Assembly (NCBI GenBank): GCA_017992485.1
Contig: JAGOOL010000001.1
Span: 1-27,850 of the forward strand
Source of the DNA: Minisyncoccota bacterium
Lineage (GTDB): Bacteria; Patescibacteriota; Minisyncoccia; Phycocordibacterales; UBA9973
Length of the DNA: 27,850 bases
Direction: 5' to 3'
Every line of letters starts with the position of its first letter. Within the stretch, counting starts at the first letter, position 1. The notes under the pieces were generated by a model. That model was given only the letters and a program-made list of their open reading frames with translations, was not told where the DNA came from and ran no database searches. This document shows positions 1,864-27,201 of this stretch, in pieces. A program made the position numbers and the translations under genes.

Positions 1864-1948
1864 GTGAAGCAATATACACTAGTATACCTATTTAGACAAT
1901 ACTCAGAAAAGCTTTATAAAACATTGTGTAATATTTCATGAAAATATG

Positions 1949-2010
1949 TGTGGATTGAGGAAACCTATATAGGACAAGGTATTAATTGCCTTATCAACAA
2001 GTTATCCACA
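1949..2010. promoter_or_regulatory. DnaA boxes upstream of dnaA (left part of oriC and/or dnaA autoregulation)
   Basis: Perfect TTATCCACA at 2002-2010, TTATCAACA at 1991-1999 (1 mismatch), TGTGGATTG at 1949-1957 (2 mismatches). Confidence 0.8.
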
Positions 2011-2033
2011 TATTATTCTAAAAAGCACAAGGT

Positions 2034-2061
2034 TTGCAGACAGCGAAGAGAAGCCTATAAT
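2034..2061 (+). promoter_or_regulatory. dnaA promoter, probably leaderless
   Basis: TTGCAG (2034-2039), 16 nt, TATAAT (2056-2061), then 6 nt to ATG 2068. Confidence 0.6.
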
Positions 2062-2067
2062 GATGCC

Positions 2068-3429
2068 ATGTTAGATACTAGAGAAATTTGGAATAGCTGT
2101 CTTCGAGATATCGAGAAGGAAGTTTCAGGCGCTAACTTTAGTACATGGTTTAAAAACACACATATTGCAAAGGAGGATTCAGGAACTATTTATGTGGGCG
2201 TTCCAAACGAATTCGTAAAGGAATGGCTTACCACAAAGTACACACCAACAATCTTGCGTATTCTTATGACGTACTTGGATAACGCTCGAAGTGTTGAGTA
2301 CACCATCACAAGATTTGATAGAGACCGAACAAAAGACGAGAGTCCGGTGCATATTTTGCCGTCACGAGAGCTTCCTCTTAAAGATCTCTATATTAATAAG
2401 GAAGATAACCTTAATCCTCGCTATATTTTCGACACATTTATTGTTGGATCGTTCAATGAGCTCGCTTATGCTGCCGCTCAGGCAATCATCAACAAACCTG
2501 GTGTTCTCTATAACCCATTCTTTATCTACGGAAGTACTGGTCTCGGCAAAACCCACCTTATGCAGGCGACAGGTAACGCCATCAAGGAAAAATACCCTGA
2601 GAAAAAGGTTCATTACATTACGCTTGAGAAGTTTGCGAACGACTATATCAACTCTTTGCAGGGGAATAGCAAGTCAAACCCGTTCCAATTCAAGGAAAAG
2701 TACCGAAAATATGACTGTCTCCTTATCGATGACATCCAATTCATCGGCAAAATGGAAAAAACACAGGAAGAACTCTTCCATCTCTTTAATACGTTCTACG
2801 ATCACAATAAGCAAATTATCTTTTCTTCCGACAAACACCCAAACTTCATCCCGGGTCTCGAGGATCGCCTCAAATCACGCTTCTCCGCCGGAATGATCGT
2901 CGACTTTGTTGACCCGGATTATGAGTCTCGTGTCGCTATTCTCAAGGCAAAGAGTCGTCAGCTTGGTATTGAAATTACTGACGAGGTTATGTCATTCATT
3001 GCAACCTCTATCCAAGGCAACATTCGAGAGCTTGAAGGCGTTTTAAACACGATTATCGTCCAGACACAGCTCAAGCAGAAGCCGCTTTCGATAAATGAGA
3101 TCAAAAACCTCATTAAAAACAGCGTCAAACCAAAGAAAAACGTCTCTGTTAAGGATATCGTTAAGCTCATCACTGATTTTTACAACCTCGAAGAGGCTAC
3201 TGTCTATGAGAAAACCCGTAGAAAGGAAATTGTTAAGGCTCGTCAAGTAATTATGTATATTCTCCGAGAAGATTTTAATGTTTCTTACCCTTTGATCGGC
3301 CAAAAGCTCGGCGGTAAAGACCACACAACTGTCATCCACTCACACTTAAAGATCCGAAACGATCTTAAGGTAGATCAAACGTTAGTTGATGAAGTTGAAC
3401 AAATTCGCGTTCTTTTTAAGAGTGTTTAG
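2068..3429 (+). CDS. dnaA: Chromosomal replication initiator DnaA (453 aa)
   Basis: Walker A GSTGLGKT, Walker B LLIDDIQF, domain IV KARQVIMY and GGKDHTTVIH. Start reassigned from GTG 1948 to ATG 2068 (MLDTREIW), because the extension covers DnaA boxes and the promoter. Confidence 0.98.
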   Translation: MLDTREIWNSCLRDIEKEVSGANFSTWFKNTHIAKEDSGTIYVGVPNEFVKEWLTTKYTPTILRILMTYLDNARSVEYTITRFDRDRTKDESPVHILPSRELPLKDLYINKEDNLNPRYIFDTFIVGSFNELAYAAAQAIINKPGVLYNPFFIYGSTGLGKTHLMQATGNAIKEKYPEKKVHYITLEKFANDYINSLQGNSKSNPFQFKEKYRKYDCLLIDDIQFIGKMEKTQEELFHLFNTFYDHNKQIIFSSDKHPNFIPGLEDRLKSRFSAGMIVDFVDPDYESRVAILKAKSRQLGIEITDEVMSFIATSIQGNIRELEGVLNTIIVQTQLKQKPLSINEIKNLIKNSVKPKKNVSVKDIVKLITDFYNLEEATVYEKTRRKEIVKARQVIMYILREDFNVSYPLIGQKLGGKDHTTVIHSHLKIRNDLKVDQTLVDEVEQIRVLFKSV

Positions 3430-3670
3430 TTTTCAAAACTGGGGATAAATCGGTTAATAAGTGGATAACTATTCTAGGAAAACCACATGAATAGCTTGTG
3501 GATGTAAAAAGAACAACTTGGAGGTAGTGTGGTTAGGTGGAAAACGAGCCGACGTTATCCACAAAACCAAAAACACGGTTTCCAAAACAGGGTATATGGA
3601 TTAAGGCCTAAAAAGTAATCCACATATCCACAGCGCTAATAGTAATAATAGATTCTTAATATATAAATAT
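3430..3670. other. oriC: Replication origin oriC (dnaA-dnaN intergenic unwinding region)
   Basis: DnaA boxes at 3440-3448 (TGGGGATAA), 3460-3468 (AGTGGATAA), 3497-3505 (TGTGGATGT), 3555-3563 (perfect TTATCCACA), and tandem 3616-3624 and 3624-3632. These are followed by GCG, the trio-like run CTA-ATA-GTA-ATA-ATA (3636-3650) and an AT-only tract. Confidence 0.88.
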
Positions 3671-4768
3671 ATGAGACTAGAGTGCATAAGTGAAAAACTA
3701 AAAAGTATTGTAAGTACAGCAGATCGAATAACAGGAAAGAATGTTGCACTTCCGGCTCTTTCATCTATCCTCCTTGTTGCATCAGGTAAGAGTCTCAAGG
3801 TTAGAGCGACCAATTTGAGTCTTGGTATTGAGATAGAAATCCCAGCCAAAATTGAAGAGGAAGGTACTATTGCTATTACGGGCGCAGTTCTCAACAGTTT
3901 CCTCGGCAATATCCCCAATACTGGAACAGTGAGTCTTGTGGCAGAGAAAGATAATATTCGTTTGGCTTCAAAAACGAGTAATGCTTTGATTAAATGCCTT
4001 CCATATGAAGATTTTCCAACACTACCTTCTGTCGACGGTGCAACATTTACTGTTCCAATAGAAAAACTCCTTGATGGTTTCCGTTCAGTCATGTTTGCCG
4101 GTGCTGTTTCTGATATAAAGCCGGAAATTGCCTCAGTTTACGTCTATACGGACAACGACGATCTTGTTTTCGTAGCTACGGACTCATTTCGCCTTGCTGA
4201 AAAGAAAGTAAAACTCAAAGAACCAATTGATATTCCCTCGATTATCATTCCACTCAAGAATGTTGTTGATATTGTTCGCACTTTTGAATCGGTTGACGGT
4301 GATATGTCTGTAACTATTTCTGAACATCAGATTTCATTTACTACAAATGGCGTGTACGTCACTAGTCGCCTCATTAACGGTACCTTCCCTGATTATCGGC
4401 AGATTATCCCAAAAGAGCACACAACAGACGCTGTGGTACTCAAATCAGACCTCACACAGGCACTCAAGCTTTCAAACGTCTTCGCCGGAAAATTTAATCA
4501 AATAACATTCACACTCGACCCTGAGGCAAAAGAATGTTCACTCGCTTCTCGTAATAGTGATGTTGGTGAGCAAAAAACCACAGTCAGTGGAGCAATGAAA
4601 GGAAATAAAATCGAAGTCCTGGTTAATTACCGTTACCTTTCAGAAGTTCTCAATGTCATTGGCAGTGATAGTGTTTCTATTGAGTGTAGTGAATCAAATC
4701 GTCCTATTTTGGTAGAAGGTGTTGGTGATAAAGGATTTCTCTATCTCATGATGCCGATGAATCGGTAA
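3671..4768 (+). CDS. dnaN: DNA polymerase III beta sliding clamp
   Basis: 365 aa; LKVRATNL, VATDSFRLAEK, SRLINGTFPDYRQIIP, YLMMPM; follows dnaA. Confidence 0.98.
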   Translation: MRLECISEKLKSIVSTADRITGKNVALPALSSILLVASGKSLKVRATNLSLGIEIEIPAKIEEEGTIAITGAVLNSFLGNIPNTGTVSLVAEKDNIRLASKTSNALIKCLPYEDFPTLPSVDGATFTVPIEKLLDGFRSVMFAGAVSDIKPEIASVYVYTDNDDLVFVATDSFRLAEKKVKLKEPIDIPSIIIPLKNVVDIVRTFESVDGDMSVTISEHQISFTTNGVYVTSRLINGTFPDYRQIIPKEHTTDAVVLKSDLTQALKLSNVFAGKFNQITFTLDPEAKECSLASRNSDVGEQKTTVSGAMKGNKIEVLVNYRYLSEVLNVIGSDSVSIECSESNRPILVEGVGDKGFLYLMMPMNR

Positions 4769-9769: not shown

Positions 9770-10822
9770 TTAAATAAGTGAATCTTGTTTCGGTTCCTTC
9801 CATTCAAAACCGAGATGGTCGTATGCGCGCTTTGTCGCAGTGCGTCCGCGCGGGGTGCGCTCGAGAAAACCGATTTGCAGCAAGTATGGCTCGATGACAT
9901 CTTCGATTGTACCTTCCTCTTCACTTGTCGCAGCAGCAAGTGTTTTAACACCAACTGGTCCGCCGTTAAATTTTTCAATCAATGTTTCGAGGAGGATGCG
10001 ATCTGTTTGTCCAAGTCCGTATTCATCAATACCAAGAAGTGCGAGCGCGCGCTTTGCAGCTTCAGTGCCAGCTTCAGTTTTGTGAACCTGTGCGTAGTCG
10101 CGAACACGTTTCAAAAAGTAGTTTGCAGTGCGGGGTGTGCGGCGGCTGCGTTTTGCTATTTCACTATGAGCATCGCCATCAAGTGTGACATCGAGAATTT
10201 TTGCAGAGCGCTCAATGATACGTTCGATTTCTTCAGGTGTGTAGTATTCGAGACGAAATGTGCCACCAGAAAAACGAGAGCGAAGCGGCGCAGAGAGTAG
10301 GGAAATACGAGTTGTTGCGGCGATGAGGGTAAACGGCGGAAGTTCGAGCTGAATTGTTCGAGCTGACGGACCTTTACCGATAATAATATCGAGCGTACCA
10401 CCCTCCATGGCAGGGTAGAGGACTTCCTCGATCATTTTGTTGAGGCGATGTATTTCGTCGATAAAAAGAATATCGCCAGGGGTGAGATTGGTGAGAATGG
10501 AAGCTAAGTCACCGACGCGTTCAATGGCCGGTCCAGAAGTAACCTTGATATTGCGGCCAGTTTCCTTGGCAATGAGGTGGGCGAGGGTGGTTTTGCCCAA
10601 ACCTGGTGGTCCATAGAAGAGAATATGTTCTGCTGTATGCCCTCGTTCTTGTGCCGCATCGAGCAAAATACGGAGATTTTCCTTGATATGGCTCTGTCCT
10701 ATGTATTCCTCCCATTTAGCAGGGCGAAGCGTAACGTCGAGGAAACCGTCATCGGCTGATTTTTTGGAAATGCCCGGATTTGGGGCAGTATTTTCATTGA
10801 TTTCTTGGTCTGTGCTTGACAT
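9770..10822 (-). CDS. ruvB: Holliday junction branch migration ATPase RuvB
   Basis: [45 protein letters not shown]. Confidence 0.98.
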
Positions 10823-10921
10823 AAATTTTTGTCTATGCTATACTCTTTTTAGATTAAACGTGCTTAACAGAAAACGGTGTTGTGAAATAAGGGTGCTTCG
10901 GCAATCCACACAATACACATC

Positions 10922-10930
10922 TTATCCACA
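10922..10930 (+). promoter_or_regulatory. Perfect DnaA box outside oriC
   Basis: TTATCCACA at 10922-10930, with CAATCCACA at 10902-10910 and TATAAT at 10933-10938. Confidence 0.5.
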
Positions 10931-11001
10931 GATATAATCACAGCTTCTGCGGGATGCGCGCTTACAACCAAACTACAATATGAATAATAGCAGATATCTA
11001 C

Positions 11002-11163
11002 GAAGAGGTCTTGAATCTCTAAGCAATCGGATCAACGTCTATAGAGTTTTGCGAAGGACGTCTTGGTGCCTGGCTTCGGCCGCGTTCCTGGGGCTATCCT
11101 TCAAAAATCTTTTACTTGTCTCCTCCGGGTTACAAGGATTGTTTGGAGATTTAAGATTTTTTC
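11002..11163 (+). ncRNA. ssrS: Probable 6S RNA (SsrS-like long hairpin with central bubble)
   Basis: 11002-11028 pairs with 11137-11163 over 27 consecutive bp (6 G-U pairs that work only on the + strand). There is an asymmetric central bubble (11029-11042 / 11111-11136) and an inner irregular stem (11043-11110) capped by GGC-UUCG-GCC. Ends are approximate. Confidence 0.72.
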
Positions 11164-11211
11164 CTCCTAACTAACTAATTATATTTCAGTATCGTGTGTA
11201 TCTAATCTAAT

Positions 11212-11241
11212 AGAAAAACCCAGAGTAATCTGGGTTTTTCT
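11212..11241. terminator. Bidirectional intrinsic terminator
   Basis: AGAAAAACCCAGA-GTAA-TCTGGGTTTTTCT, between the + strand ncRNA and the - strand pilB. Confidence 0.85.
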
Positions 11242-11284
11242 TATTGGTTTTTAAATAATCAAAGGTGTATTACGTGGTGCATTT

Positions 11285-12979
11285 TTATTCTCCCTCCATT
11301 TCCACAACACTTGCGAGCTCTTCAATAGAAGTCACACCATTTAAAATCTTGATGACACCATCTTCTTTCATATCAAGTGTTCCTTGGAGGTCGCCAACTT
11401 TTTTAATATCACGCTCAGAAGGATTCGTTGGAATAATTTTCTCGAGATTTTCGTCTGTGTAAATTGCCTCAAAGACACCAATACGCCCCTTATAACCGGC
11501 ATTGCATTTATCACAACCAACAGGTTTATATAGTTCGATCTTCTGATCAGCCTTAACCCCGTACACTTCGATATTTTTTCCGGCAGCAACTGCGCCAGTG
11601 AGAATATTCCTAATAAGTGTTTCTTCTTCGGATGTCGGTTCACGTTTAGCCTTACAGACCGGACAGAGTTTACGAATGAGTCGCTGCGCCATTGAGAGAT
11701 TGAGTGCCGAAACCAAAATTTTTGCATTTACATCGAGGTCAATCAATCGGGGAATAACACCACCGGCATTGTTGGTATGGAGCGTTGAAAAAACCAGGTG
11801 ACCAGTGAGTGCTGATTCAACAGCAATTTTTGCGGTTTCCGAATCTCGGATTTCACCCACCATGATAACGTCCGGGTCCTGACGAAGCGCAGAGCGCAAA
11901 CCTTCTAAGAAGGTATACCCTTTTTTACTATCTGTCTGCGTCTGCGTAATGCCTTTCAAATGGTATTCAATCGGGTCTTCAATAGTAATAATCTTGATTG
12001 CCTCAGAGTAAATACGTCTCAGAAACGCATACAAGGTCGTGGTTTTACCGGAACCAGTCGGACCAGTAATGAGAATGAGACCATTTGGTTTCTTAATCTC
12101 GTGCTCGATGATGCCAAAGAGTTTCGGTTCAATGCCAAGCTCTTCGAGATCAACTTGAATTGATTTTGGATTGAGAAGACGCATCACTGTTGATTCACCA
12201 TACGCACCGGGAATAGCAGAGACACGAACAGAAATTTCAGTTTCACCGATCCAAATCGAGAAGCGGCCATCTTGGTTTTTGACTACCGTCAATTTCATGC
12301 CGGACAAAAGTTTGATACGAGAGATTAAATATTTGTAGACGTCATAGTTAAAGAAAAGCACGTCTTCGAGTACGCCATCAAGACGGTATCGCAAGCGAAT
12401 TCTATCTTCTTCCGGTTCAATGTGGATATCGGATGCATTCATCGAGATAGCGCCAGCCAAAATAATCTCGAGCATATGTGAGATTTTGTGTGTTTTATCA
12501 TCTGCTGAAATCTTTTCGATTGCACTCGTGAGGTCGGGGATAGTGTGAATGTCTTTTCCGATTTCAATAAGCTTGTCTCCGGCAATATCAAGAGTGCCAG
12601 ATTTAACCCGGTCAGCATACGAAATTTCTTTGTAGCGTTCCCAGACTTTCTCAAGCGAAGAACGTGAGGCCATGTAGAAAATCGGGTCCATTCCCTTATC
12701 TTTGAGTTTTTTGAATAGGTCTTGAATTTCGCGACGCTCCGGAGCATGGACGGCAACGTGAATTGTGTGACCGAGAACCTTAAAAGGAGCAGCTTCTATA
12801 GCGCGGGCTTCGGGCTCAGTGAGAGCGCGAACAGCCTCGTTCTCAATCGGGATACTGTTGAGATTTACATAGGGAATATTGTACTTTTGCTCAGCGAGCA
12901 TCTGTATGAGTTCTTCTTCTTCCTTCTTTTTGAGGTCATCGATCTTTTTGAGCTCTTTTTGTTCATCGAACTTCGGCAT
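11285..12979 (-). CDS. pilB: Type IV pilus/T2SS assembly ATPase, GspE/PilB family
   Basis: ASDIHIEP, RYRLDGVL, GPTGSGKTTTLY, TIEDPIEY, LRQDPDVIMVGEIRD, TGHLVFSTLHTN, and the Zn motif CPVC...CDKC. Confidence 0.92.
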   Translation of the reverse strand: MPKFDEQKELKKIDDLKKKEEEELIQMLAEQKYNIPYVNLNSIPIENEAVRALTEPEARAIEAAPFKVLGHTIHVAVHAPERREIQDLFKKLKDKGMDPIFYMASRSSLEKVWERYKEISYADRVKSGTLDIAGDKLIEIGKDIHTIPDLTSAIEKISADDKTHKISHMLEIILAGAISMNASDIHIEPEEDRIRLRYRLDGVLEDVLFFNYDVYKYLISRIKLLSGMKLTVVKNQDGRFSIWIGETEISVRVSAIPGAYGESTVMRLLNPKSIQVDLEELGIEPKLFGIIEHEIKKPNGLILITGPTGSGKTTTLYAFLRRIYSEAIKIITIEDPIEYHLKGITQTQTDSKKGYTFLEGLRSALRQDPDVIMVGEIRDSETAKIAVESALTGHLVFSTLHTNNAGGVIPRLIDLDVNAKILVSALNLSMAQRLIRKLCPVCKAKREPTSEEETLIRNILTGAVAAGKNIEVYGVKADQKIELYKPVGCDKCNAGYKGRIGVFEAIYTDENLEKIIPTNPSERDIKKVGDLQGTLDMKEDGVIKILNGVTSIEELASVVEMEGE

Positions 12980-13182: not shown

Positions 13183-14982
13183 ATGAAAAAGCTCATTACA
13201 ATGACAGTAATTGCCATTTTGGCTCTTACTGCTACACAAGCGTTTGCACGCAAACCACAACCAGTTGCTCCGTTCCTGTTTGATAGCAACAACAACAAAG
13301 TTGCTTATACAGCAGAACAAGTGAGAGAAATCTTTGCGACTAAAACTGGACTTAATTGCTCAGTAGATGCAGCCGCAGCAAAAATTCTTGAGAAAATAAA
13401 CGTTCAAAAGGAAAATGCAGGTTTGTATCCGGGACAAGATTATACCGAACTACAGGATTTTCTTGATTCAATGAAATTGTATCAAGCGGAAGACTGGGTA
13501 TATACCCTTGGACTAGATCCTGATCAGCCGGATGTATTTGTTCCAGTAATGACCGATGGTCAACCGGGACGAGCAAAAGAAGGAGATGAAGGTTTTTTTG
13601 GAGTTTGGGTAAGTCAGTTGGACGAGACGATTACGCCGGAACAAGATGTTTTATTCATTCTGTTCTATGCAAATTGTATCAATCCTCCTGATGTTGCTCT
13701 CAACGTCAAAAAACTTTCTCAGCCTCAACTTCCTGCTGCTGATGGAATGCAAAATGAAAACAGTGATGAAATTGGTGGAAGCAGTAGCTCTTCATCAATA
13801 GCGTCATCGAATGTCGATGTCGACATTGCAAGTTCTGAACCGAATATTATTTATGTTGAAACTGCTCCCCAGCAAATGATGCCATATGGAGGCGGAATGA
13901 TGGGTGGGCAAGTATATGCTCAAGCAAGTTTCGGTGGTGGATGTGGTGGTTGTAATCAACAATCACAAGCCCCTACATTTATTGATAACAGTATTCAGAA
14001 TATTGATAACTCACAAGTTATCACTGAAACGATTATCAATGAACACAACAATAATAATAACGGCAACAACAGCAATAACATTATCGACAGCGGTAACGAC
14101 AACAGTAATACTGATAGTCACGACGACAATAGTACGACTGACAGTCATGATGTAATCGTTAACAACATTCCTAGAACCCCTCGTGGTCATCATCCTCATG
14201 TTCCAGGTCCGATTATCGGTGGCCCAGTGGGTGCTGATAACGGTGGAACAGGTGGAACAGGTGGTACTGGTGGAAATGGGTCTGACGAAGAAGGTTGGAT
14301 CGATGAAAACCCAGGTACCGGTGGTACAGGCGGCACAGGCGGAACAGGTGGTACAGGTGACGATGAAGAAGGTTGGAATCCTCCCGGAACCATCGATGAA
14401 CAAGGTGGCGGGAGAATAATAAACCCTAGAGGAAATGGAAATTCGGGTGGTGGATTGGCTTCTCAAAATCAATCAGCACAACCGAAAAGAAAACTTTCTT
14501 ATTCTGGTCAATCAGAATCTAACCCATCTAACCCAACGCCAACACCTACGAACAACACTTCAACAAGAAATGATGTCCAAGGAAAAAATGTTGGTAACAA
14601 CTATCCATCGAACACAATTCCTGCCGCTGGCGGTCTTACATTAAAAAGAAGACTTGCTTCGGAAAATCAGCCAATGGCTTCTCTTGAAAAAAAGAATGAC
14701 AATTCCTCACGTCAACCTTCGGTAACGAAGCCGCGCCAAGAAAAGTCAGGATACAATTTTGATAGAAGAGATCAAAACAATAACCAAAAAGTTGATCAAC
14801 CAAGCGCTGAGAGAAAGAATCCTACTGTTAAGAAAGAACAAGTTCGCAAAGAACACGTTCAGAAAGAAAGAAAAGAGTATCGCCGTAAATCTCAGGTTAA
14901 AAAACCTAAGCAAAACAGTGTCTCTAGACCGAAATCTAAAAAGTCTAACAGTAAAAAAAGTGGTGGCTATTCATTTAGCTAA
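13183..14982 (+). CDS. Secreted low-complexity hypothetical protein (599 aa)
   Basis: Sec signal peptide (MKKLITMTVIAILALTATQAFA), ~150-aa folded-looking N-domain with two Cys, then Ser-, Gly/Met-, Asn/Asp- and (GGT)n-rich tracts, and a Lys/Arg-rich tail. Confidence 0.85.
   Translation: MKKLITMTVIAILALTATQAFARKPQPVAPFLFDSNNNKVAYTAEQVREIFATKTGLNCSVDAAAAKILEKINVQKENAGLYPGQDYTELQDFLDSMKLYQAEDWVYTLGLDPDQPDVFVPVMTDGQPGRAKEGDEGFFGVWVSQLDETITPEQDVLFILFYANCINPPDVALNVKKLSQPQLPAADGMQNENSDEIGGSSSSSSIASSNVDVDIASSEPNIIYVETAPQQMMPYGGGMMGGQVYAQASFGGGCGGCNQQSQAPTFIDNSIQNIDNSQVITETIINEHNNNNNGNNSNNIIDSGNDNSNTDSHDDNSTTDSHDVIVNNIPRTPRGHHPHVPGPIIGGPVGADNGGTGGTGGTGGNGSDEEGWIDENPGTGGTGGTGGTGGTGDDEEGWNPPGTIDEQGGGRIINPRGNGNSGGGLASQNQSAQPKRKLSYSGQSESNPSNPTPTPTNNTSTRNDVQGKNVGNNYPSNTIPAAGGLTLKRRLASENQPMASLEKKNDNSSRQPSVTKPRQEKSGYNFDRRDQNNNQKVDQPSAERKNPTVKKEQVRKEHVQKERKEYRRKSQVKKPKQNSVSRPKSKKSNSKKSGGYSFS
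14242..14376 (+). repeat. Internal coding repeat (GGT)n-x-DEEGW, 2 copies
   Basis: GGTGGTGGTGGNGSDEEGW and GGTGGTGGTGGTGDDEEGW; the DNA copies differ at synonymous positions. Confidence 0.8.
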
Positions 14983-25417: not shown

Positions 25418-26392
25418 TTACGAATATAATTTCTGATGAACAGGGCAAAAGTGCGCGCTGCGTCCACCAAAGGGAAGTTTCTCAATCGTACCTTTACAGC
25501 CGCGTCTCGGACACGGCTTGCCGGCGCATCGATAGACATTGTGGGCGGACTGGAACTTGCCGCGATTTCCGGTAATGTCTCTGTAGTCACTTGTTGAGTC
25601 ACCACCGAAATCAATACCTTTTTTTAGCACAGTAATCATGCCTTTGTATAAGAGAGATAGAAGATTCTTGGGAATTTTTTCAACAATAGAAAAAGGATGA
25701 ATACCTGCGAGGAAAAGCATTTCATCTGAATAGATATTACCAATACCGGCAATCACTGTTTGGTCGAGCAAAACTATTTTTATTTTGCCACGCGGCTTTT
25801 CCATGAGTCGCTCGACGAATATTTTTTCGGTAAAGCTTTTGTCGAGCGGTTCTGGTCCGAGGTGTTTGAGGTGAATACTCGTTGCTAGGTCGGCTGTATC
25901 GACAAGCGTCATTTTGGCAAACTTGCGAACATCAGAGAGCACGACGTGTTTTCCGTTCGAAAGGGTAAAGACAACGTGAAGAAATCTATTGTATGGATCG
26001 CGAAGCGCATTATTTTTCTCAGTCGGAGATGGTATCCATTCTTTTTTCTTGGTATCGAGTACATATTTCCCAACCATCATATGGCCGGTCATTTTCATAT
26101 GGATCAAAACCGTTTTTTGGTTCTTTGAATAATTTTTTGCTCCAGTTTTTGTGCTGGCAGTTTCGATATGGATCAAAATATTTTTTGCACGACGCGTCAC
26201 CGAAATAACTTTCGCGCCGACAACATGTTTTTTGAATAAAGCAAAAAAGTTTTTATCTTTGTGGGATGTTTTTAGGTGTGGGGAAGTGTGGTTGCCATTT
26301 GCAAGATCGGTCCAGACATCAGTAATACGAAGACCCGGCAAAGTCTTTTGCAGTCCGCTCACGGTTGTGTGTACTTCGGGTAGTTCAGGCAT
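25418..26392 (-). CDS. mutM: Formamidopyrimidine-DNA glycosylase
   Basis: N-terminal PELPEV, RRAKNILI, IHMKMTG, DVRKFA, H2TH motif AGIGNIYSDEMLF, C-terminal zinc finger with GGRSAHFCPVHQ. Confidence 0.96.
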   Translation of the reverse strand: MPELPEVHTTVSGLQKTLPGLRITDVWTDLANGNHTSPHLKTSHKDKNFFALFKKHVVGAKVISVTRRAKNILIHIETASTKTGAKNYSKNQKTVLIHMKMTGHMMVGKYVLDTKKKEWIPSPTEKNNALRDPYNRFLHVVFTLSNGKHVVLSDVRKFAKMTLVDTADLATSIHLKHLGPEPLDKSFTEKIFVERLMEKPRGKIKIVLLDQTVIAGIGNIYSDEMLFLAGIHPFSIVEKIPKNLLSLLYKGMITVLKKGIDFGGDSTSDYRDITGNRGKFQSAHNVYRCAGKPCPRRGCKGTIEKLPFGGRSAHFCPVHQKLYS

Positions 26393-26492: not shown

Positions 26493-27065
26493 CTACTTCC
26501 CGATATATTTAAGCGCTTCGCGAAGCTTATCATTGAGCGTAACGGCAGTGGCTGGAATTCTCTTGATCGCATCGCGACCTTCTTCTCGCGTATAACCGAG
26601 CTTCATCAAAGCCTCAATAACATCTGAGTCACCAGACAGTTCGCCACTCGCAGCAGTGTGACCAAGGGCCGCAAGTTTGTCACGAAGATCGATAATTATT
26701 TTTTCAGCAGTTTTTCTTCCGATGCCGGAAACACTCGTCAGATACGTCGCGTCGCCAGCACCAATCGCGCGCTGAATCGAATCGATCGAGCCAAGCGAAA
26801 CAATAGCAATCGCCGAACGGGGACCGACACCGGAAACCGTAATAAGCATTTGGAAAAATGTCAGCTCCTGGCGAGTCCGAAAGCCGTACAACTCCATAGA
26901 ATCCTCGCGAACGACCAGGTGAGTAAACAGCGCCATTTCAGCGCCGAGCTTGGCAACGGCAAGCGTCTCGGTAGTAGTTGAGACCTCATAGCCCACACCT
27001 TGGGTTTCGATGATAACCGAGCGGTCTGAAATGTCGGCAATTGTGCCTTTAACGAATGCGATCAT
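26493..27065 (-). CDS. ruvA: Holliday junction DNA-binding protein RuvA
   Basis: MIAFVKG, GVGYEV, LVVREDSMELYGF, HhH motifs VSGVGPRSA and VSGIGRKTAEKI, C-terminal EALMKLGY. Start moved from 27080 to ATG 27065. Confidence 0.97.
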   Translation of the reverse strand: MIAFVKGTIADISDRSVIIETQGVGYEVSTTTETLAVAKLGAEMALFTHLVVREDSMELYGFRTRQELTFFQMLITVSGVGPRSAIAIVSLGSIDSIQRAIGAGDATYLTSVSGIGRKTAEKIIIDLRDKLAALGHTAASGELSGDSDVIEALMKLGYTREEGRDAIKRIPATAVTLNDKLREALKYIGK

Positions 27066-27201
27066 GGAGACAGTATACAAGGAAGCCGCCAGCTTGCATA
27101 TTGCGTCTTTTCTGGTATAGTAATCCCGTCTCAGTCAGTTCGAGCGAAAGCGTAAGCAATCGCAAAAAGTCTCTCGTTATTACCTTATTTAATTACATTC
27201 A

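Follow-up and report, generated by a model that had tools for sequence, protein, structure and literature searches.

A four-way-junction RNA gene between ruvB and pilB in Paceibacteria, and the canonical 6S RNA of the same genomes

The ruvB–pilB gap and its signals

The window (the whole stretch of DNA that was analysed, 27,850 nucleotides) contains a ruvB gene and a gene for a pilB-type ATPase, both on the minus strand, and the gap between them is the site of a plus-strand RNA gene. The following genes and signals were located in this region (positions are those of the window):

9770–10822, minus strand: ruvB, divergent, upstream of the RNA gene (Pfam RuvB_N, AAA_lid_4 and RuvB_C)
10816–10844, plus strand: distal near-consensus promoter, TTGACA-17-TATACT with TG; its -35 box overlaps the ruvB start codon (10820–10822)
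10922–10930, plus strand: DnaA-box-like sequence TTATCCACA in the ruvB–RNA spacer
10961–10988, plus strand: proximal promoter-like site, CTTACA-16-AATAAT, with a predicted start about 6–8 nt before the first helix (P1) of the RNA
11002–11163, plus strand: four-way-junction RNA gene, about 162 nt from first to last paired base; homologues align exactly to these ends
11212–11241, both directions: hairpin terminator (A-run, 13-bp stem, T-run)
11285–12979, minus strand: pilB-type ATPase gene, convergent, downstream of the RNA gene (Pfam T2SSE, 377 bits)

The RNA gene was found to be single-copy per genome and syntenic. Among the 99 homologous loci collected (see below), the upstream neighbour was ruvB in 95 and the downstream neighbour pilB in 72, and the pilB stop codon was separated from the RNA 3' end by a median of 45 nt (quartile, 9 nt). 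Class-level homologues were followed by pilB in 18/18 loci and preceded by ruvB in 16/18, the remaining two loci stopping before the ruvB side.

Two promoter candidates precede the RNA. The TTGACAT of the distal one was invariant in the 8/8 genomes of the genus, and this promoter faces the minus-strand TGnTATAAT promoter of ruvB head-on. At the proximal site, the block AATAATAGCAGAT was conserved in the genus, and a -10 box was present at most 70 nt from P1 in 97/99 homologues, which is weak evidence in genomes as AT-rich as these. At the other end of the gene, a run of at least six U was found at the 3' end of P1 in 83/99 homologues, so that P1 together with this U-tract (U6–8) would constitute the RNA's own terminator. 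The initial annotation had reported a strong terminator about 50 nt downstream of the RNA. This hairpin is indeed present at 11212–11241, but it was conserved only in the closest relatives and was absent downstream of most homologues, and it does not form part of the conserved gene; it is most likely the bidirectional terminator and back-stop of pilB, outside the conserved RNA gene.

Boxes similar to TTATCCACA were enriched 9-fold in the ruvB–RNA spacer (10823–11001 and the same spacer of 98 loci), in a single orientation, and none was found inside ruvB. Most of them were located 29–38 nt from the ruvB ATG, beside the minus-strand TGnTATAAT, and they probably belong to the minus-strand promoter or leader of ruvB. 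Their fixed distance from the ruvB ATG and their position beside this extended -10 box speak against a role as regulators of the RNA; DnaA may control ruvB-ruvC. Five further DnaA-box-like sites were found in the spacer between dnaA (1948–3429) and dnaN (3671–4768), at 3440–3632 and its edges. This region, which lies about 7.5 kb from the RNA gene, is probably oriC, and the distance of the box cluster ruled out an origin at the RNA locus itself.

Several other observations were made in the window. The segment between the distal and proximal promoters (10851–10950) was conserved in part of the genus, and a contig assembled from a true RNA library covered 10814–10942 and the pilB end, not the RNA, with 91% identity over 10851–10950; this segment may be the 5' leader of ruvB or a leader of the RNA. 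Among public sequencing runs, no library on record as RNA was listed for the RNA gene, partial pieces of which turned up in assembled contigs from runs of unknown or guessed kind. An ORF of 599 aa without Pfam match (13183–14982, plus strand) lies beside pilB, and yidC was found at 337–1101 on the minus strand. The genes ruvA (26493–27080) and fpg (25418–26392), both on the minus strand, are situated about 16 kb from ruvB-ruvC, and the apparent lack of ruvA near ruvB-ruvC is a matter of gene order and not of loss.

Fold, covariation and distribution of the four-armed RNA

Both strands of the element were folded. The plus strand reached a minimum free energy of -67.5 kcal/mol (z -7.2), with 0/200 shuffled sequences as good, versus -34.4 kcal/mol (z -1.05) for the minus strand, in which the stem contains A–C mismatches and folds poorly. 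The predicted structure is a four-way junction of helices P1 to P4 (27 bp, 4 bp, a long irregular arm of about 25 bp, and 8 bp) with junction linkers of 0, 2, 2 and 0 nt. Its parts, all on the plus strand, are the following:

11002–11028: P1, 5' strand; 27/27 positions paired with 11137–11163 (21 Watson-Crick pairs, 6 G-U pairs, no mismatch)
11029–11040: P2, a 4-bp hairpin within the 14-nt 5' strand; double changes in 3/4 pairs, 92.2% paired
11043–11112: P3, long irregular arm with a variable apex that includes UUCG
11115–11136: P4, 3' hairpin CUUGU...ACAAG of 8 bp, stacked on P1 without linker; double changes in 7/8 pairs
11137–11163: P1, 3' strand, ending in U6 (11157–11162), similar to an intrinsic terminator

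These results bore out the initial annotation in its assignment of the RNA to the plus strand, in its uninterrupted 27-bp closing stem with six G-U pairs, and in its 3'-side hairpin. It had also described an open central bubble and a cUUCGg apex, and both descriptions stood in part. The 14-nt 5' side of the supposed bubble, GGAUCAACGUCUAU (11029–11042), is present, but since this strand forms the covarying hairpin P2, which was also seen in single-sequence folds of divergent homologues, the centre of the molecule is a four-way junction and not an open bubble. The tetraloop is present in the window but was not conserved among homologues.

Using blastn, homologues were detected in 19/41 relatives, all of them aligned to exactly 11002–11163, and compensatory changes were found in 31 of the 61 pairs of the resulting 19-sequence alignment. 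Searching with a covariance model (R1) and scanning species genomes with a pattern yielded 99 members (96 distinct sequences), from metagenome-assembled genomes labelled Ca. Nomurabacteria, Paceibacterota and Parcubacteria. Over the 96 distinct sequences, 92.8% of cells were paired and 38/61 pairs showed double changes; 0/500 shuffles reached the observed value on any measure, and slid controls were 37–53% paired. Covariation among homologues, which the initial annotation had proposed as a check, was thus found, and the structure is well beyond chance. The strand preference was maintained throughout: R1 scored 85–158 bits on the plus strand of the homologues versus 35–53 bits on the minus strand, and 158.4 versus 44.4 bits for the RNA of the window.

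Conservation was unevenly distributed over the arms. P1 showed double changes in 13/27 pairs, with 96.9% paired among the 96 sequences, and its CUC/GAG and CAA/UUG segments were retained across families. The most conserved motif was located in P3, where GGA-C-GUCUUGG (11055–11066) faces CCUGGGGC-UA-UCC (11088–11100), forming a 1x2 internal loop that adjoins tandem G-U pairs; its class-wide consensus is AGGACgu..UGGU / Cugg..cuaUCCU. In other families the P4 loop carries a conserved CCCA. The core conserved throughout the class therefore consists of the two P1 segments, AGGAC..UGGU versus CUGG..UAUCCU in P3, and the base of P4, and the most conserved nucleotides are those of the P3 internal loop and its flanking helix and not a single-stranded seed. 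The four-arm plan was kept in 17 divergent homologues of other families. Mutual information revealed no tertiary pairs or pseudoknot beyond the helices.

Model R1 detected one locus per genome in 37/41 genomes of the order (own family, 22/24; other families, 14/16) and, being a narrow model, the RNA in 19/151 genomes of the class sample. A strict pattern was matched by more than 119 species genomes. Sites complementary to the conserved strands of the RNA were searched for elsewhere in the genome and none was found.

Canonical 6S RNA and other known RNAs in these genomes

The initial annotation had taken the RNA for the organism's 6S RNA in a compact form, with a new class of non-coding RNA as its fallback should the Rfam models miss it. 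Canonical 6S RNA is a rod with a large single-stranded central bulge that bears the pRNA start, a hairpin that faces the 5' strand of the centre, and closing and apical stems broken up by small loops and bulges (PMC8414754). In contrast to such bulged stems, the closing stem of the four-armed RNA consists of 27 uninterrupted pairs, with an irregular apical arm, and the GGGAG/CACCCAC helix that is a hallmark of 6S RNA is absent from it. Neither RF00013, RF01685 nor any other Rfam 15 model matched positions 10800–11300 at the gathering score or at E ≤ 10, and no Rfam 15 family was found at E ≤ 0.5 in the 17 divergent homologues. A search of the whole genome with RF00013 gave no match at the RNA locus or elsewhere.

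Paceibacteria do carry a canonical 6S RNA, recognisable by the hallmark GGGAGC...GCACCCACCU. In the class sample RF00013 matched 7/151 genomes at E ≤ 0.01, of which five reached E ≤ 1e-4 and two were weaker; one of the 151 was above the cut-off. These matches display the hallmark. From five of them (alignment A5) a lineage 6S model, R2, was built, and with it 6S-type RNAs were detected in 10/16 other families of the order. The lineage 6S alignment of 17 sequences showed double changes in 41/47 pairs. Its core model, R3, found the hallmark in 13/16 other families and in 8/24 own-family genomes, to which an unfiltered search added one more genome (G013).

The 6S RNA of the genome under study was found by a motif scan on another contig:

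C49:10950–11098 (= L219:1451–1599), minus strand: the genome's own 6S RNA

This locus, whose fold had a z of -5.85, reached a score of 22 bits under R2 (E 1.7e-4 in 3 kb); under RF00013 the score was 16 bits. It was conserved in 7/7 genomes of the genus, was linked by blastn to the 6S loci of the family and could be aligned with them block by block. Its GAGAG/CACUCAC helix is a compensated form of GGGAG/CACCCAC, the pair in question being G-C in 9 sequences and A-U in 6. The RNA forms a canonical rod, with a terminator behind it and with CCUAG/CUAGG alternative pairings of the kind typical of 6S release hairpins.

Cross-tabulation of the searches showed that both RNAs are present in at least 28 of the 41 genomes, including the one under study. 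Since the canonical 6S RNA coexists with it in these genomes, the four-armed RNA is not the 6S RNA of these organisms. The original identification could therefore not be maintained in view of the missing Rfam match, the closed centre, the unbulged stem and the separate 6S RNA on C49, and it was the fallback that held: a highly structured, non-coding, plus-strand RNA that Rfam 15 misses both in the window and in the divergent homologues. The likeness of the four-armed RNA to the description of canonical 6S RNA is real but superficial. No description of this RNA was found in Rfam 15 or in the literature searched, and it is best read as a new family that no catalogued RNA matches. What is new here is the direct demonstration of a canonical 6S RNA beside the four-armed RNA, also in this very genome.

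Other identities were considered as well. RNase P RNA and tmRNA were found normally in these genomes, whereas no SRP RNA (RF00169, RF01854) was found. The Ffh M domain (PF02978) and the SRP-type GTPase (PF00448; Ffh, FtsY) were absent in 5 relatives and in the 151 class genomes, a motif scan found neither in the own genome, and loss of SRP in Parcubacteria has been described (Nelson and Stegen 2015, PMC4508563). The missing RF00169/RF01854 match, the variable apex and the lack of Ffh and FtsY ruled out SRP (4.5S) RNA as the identity of the four-armed RNA. A Y RNA or YrlA was rejected because the Ro/TROVE protein (PF05731) was absent in 5 genomes and the locus gave no tRNA-like match. A coding gene was rejected because the 64-aa ORF at 10980–11174 is open in only 10/99 homologues and has no Pfam match, and a riboswitch or cis leader is unlikely because no gene follows on the same strand, pilB being convergent and ruvB divergent. 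Finally, the presence of ruvA in the window and in 137/151 class genomes ruled out a substitute for RuvA.

Possible functions and likeness to known systems

The element is very probably a real and new RNA gene that is distinct from 6S. As the best explanation overall, to which we assign a probability of roughly 0.45, we propose that the element is a gene in its own right, present once per genome, whose product is a stable, structured RNA of a new family that probably binds protein. Transcription would proceed from the plus strand, antisense to pilB and ruvB, and P1 with its U-tract would end the transcript. Pairing of the U-tail with the purine-rich 5' end would seal both ends of the RNA against exonucleases, which could make it abundant and stable. 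A partner protein would dock on the junction and the conserved loop of P3, and the RNA would then serve as a scaffold or decoy in trans. Protein recognition is favoured over base-pairing with targets because conservation is concentrated in the P3 loop and helix, there is no seed and the genome holds no complementary sites; nevertheless, this protein-binding, trans-acting mechanism is a model that we hold tentatively, at somewhat short of even odds. A secondary, position-dependent role is likely in addition, in which the convergent RNA gene, with its strong promotion and long hairpin, would keep pilB transcription apart from ruvB-ruvC, and its distal promoter would compete with the opposing ruvB promoter. 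That the gene is almost always found in the pilB–ruvB gap, which an RNA acting purely in trans would not require, hints at such a local role. RNase III was present in 4/4 complete relatives and should be able to cut a perfect 27-bp duplex, so the mature RNA may differ from the primary fold.

The same facts keep alive the main rival, that the element acts locally in cis, either instead of or on top of a role in trans. It would be an insulator or bidirectional terminator between pilB and ruvB-ruvC and would tune ruvBC, either through competing promoters or through base-pairing of its transcript with read-through RNA from pilB and subsequent cleavage by RNase III. Retention of the slot in 95/99 loci and in all 18 class-level homologues, the short distance to the pilB stop codon, the overlap of the distal -35 box with the ruvB ATG opposite the minus-strand TGnTATAAT, and the presence of RNase III are all consistent with it, as are the A-rich 5' and U-rich 3' flanks, which in many genomes allow P1 to be used on either strand. 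However, neither an insulator nor an antisense RNA needs a conserved four-way junction, G-U-specific pairs or an internal loop, the mismatched minus-strand stem folds poorly, and the window holds a separate pilB terminator. As a full account of the element, a local function is therefore unlikely.

By analogy with 6S-2 of B. subtilis, the RNA might instead be a second, non-canonical 6S-like RNA, an open-promoter mimic that would bind sigma70-RNA polymerase and serve as template for pRNA. Its length of about 160 nt, the long stem in which it ends and its irregular apical arm would fit, and so would the hairpin opposite the 5' central strand (PMC8414754); two 6S RNAs occur in some bacteria (PMC3923129). 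The conserved P2 hairpin and linkers of 0–2 nt, however, leave no open bubble, and to this are added the bulge-free closing stem, the missing hallmark helix, the failure of RF00013 and other Rfam models at permissive thresholds, and the coexisting canonical 6S RNA, which together make this reading improbable.

A ligand-sensing or catalytic RNA, modelled either as an aptamer inside its own terminator stem or as a new self-cleaving ribozyme, is similarly improbable. Conserved internal loops in a compact junction of several helices are typical of aptamers and small ribozymes, and since P1 is also the terminator, folding of the core could set the efficiency of termination; but no same-strand gene lies downstream to be regulated, no known riboswitch or ribozyme model matches, and the conserved nucleotides are few and mostly paired. 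The four-way topology and the near-absolute linkage to ruvB-ruvC could also suggest a mimic of the Holliday junction that would bind or titrate the RuvABC machinery. This model is very improbable: RuvA is encoded in the window and in 137/151 class genomes and nothing needs replacing, the arms (27, 4, about 25 and 8 bp) are very unequal, RuvA and RuvC recognise B-form DNA, and gene order is conserved in these genomes anyway. The remaining identities (SRP RNA, Y RNA, a small protein gene, or a MITE or single-stranded DNA element) can be dismissed, since the lack of a detectable SRP RNA, the 64-aa ORF and the inverted repeat that bounds the element are outweighed by the absence of Ffh, SRP-type GTPase and Ro/TROVE, by an ORF open in so few homologues, by single copy and synteny, and by a promoter and U-tract that indicate an RNA.

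Within the preferred reading of a protein-binding RNA of a new family, the position of the gene, locked between pilB and ruvB-ruvC near oriC, suggests a further step that we regard as speculative and improbable: the RNA would be a subunit or specific decoy of a ribonucleoprotein found only in Paceibacteria, which may couple DNA uptake or recombination, for instance through the Holliday-junction machinery, to an RNA signal. Paceibacteria belong to the candidate phyla radiation. With genomes of about 0.6 Mb, they have shed even SRP, yet they have kept the four-armed RNA in nearly every genome of the order, which ranks it beside the few universal RNAs that they keep (rRNA, tRNA, RNase P RNA, tmRNA and 6S RNA). 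Its retention in such reduced genomes implies an important job. For annotation, the 6S label, though obvious, is wrong for this RNA and should not be transferred, while the real 6S RNA of Paceibacteria, largely invisible to RF00013 and mostly unannotated, can now be modelled. Metatranscriptomics and in vitro experiments with RNA polymerase could take both RNAs as concrete, testable targets.

Three groups of known RNAs invite comparison with the four-armed RNA. With 6S RNA (SsrS; RF00013, RF01685) it shares a length of about 160 nt, ends that pair in a long closing stem, internal loops in an irregular apical arm, a central hairpin on the 3' side, an own promoter and a gene of the stable-RNA type in a tiny genome. 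It differs from 6S RNA in its closed junction, with a covarying hairpin where 6S has a single-stranded template strand, in its uninterrupted stem, and in lacking both the GGGAG/CACCCAC helix and a match to the models. With YrlA and the tRNA-like domain of tmRNA it has in common the cloverleaf order of four helices with a long terminal stem, a last arm stacked on this stem without linker, and a 3' U-tail paired to a purine-rich 5' end. In contrast to them it lacks the T-loop/D-loop consensus and a CCA end, and ARAGORN and the Rfam tRNA and tmRNA models matched at other loci only; as regards YrlA, no Ro60 (TROVE) protein was found in the 5 genomes searched. Orphan non-coding RNAs such as raiA, OLE and HEARO resemble it in being restricted to a lineage, with strong covariation, a multi-helix junction, an own transcription unit and no known function when first described. 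The four-armed RNA is set apart from these by having no match in Rfam 15, by its restriction to Paceibacteria and by its fixed slot beside ruvB.
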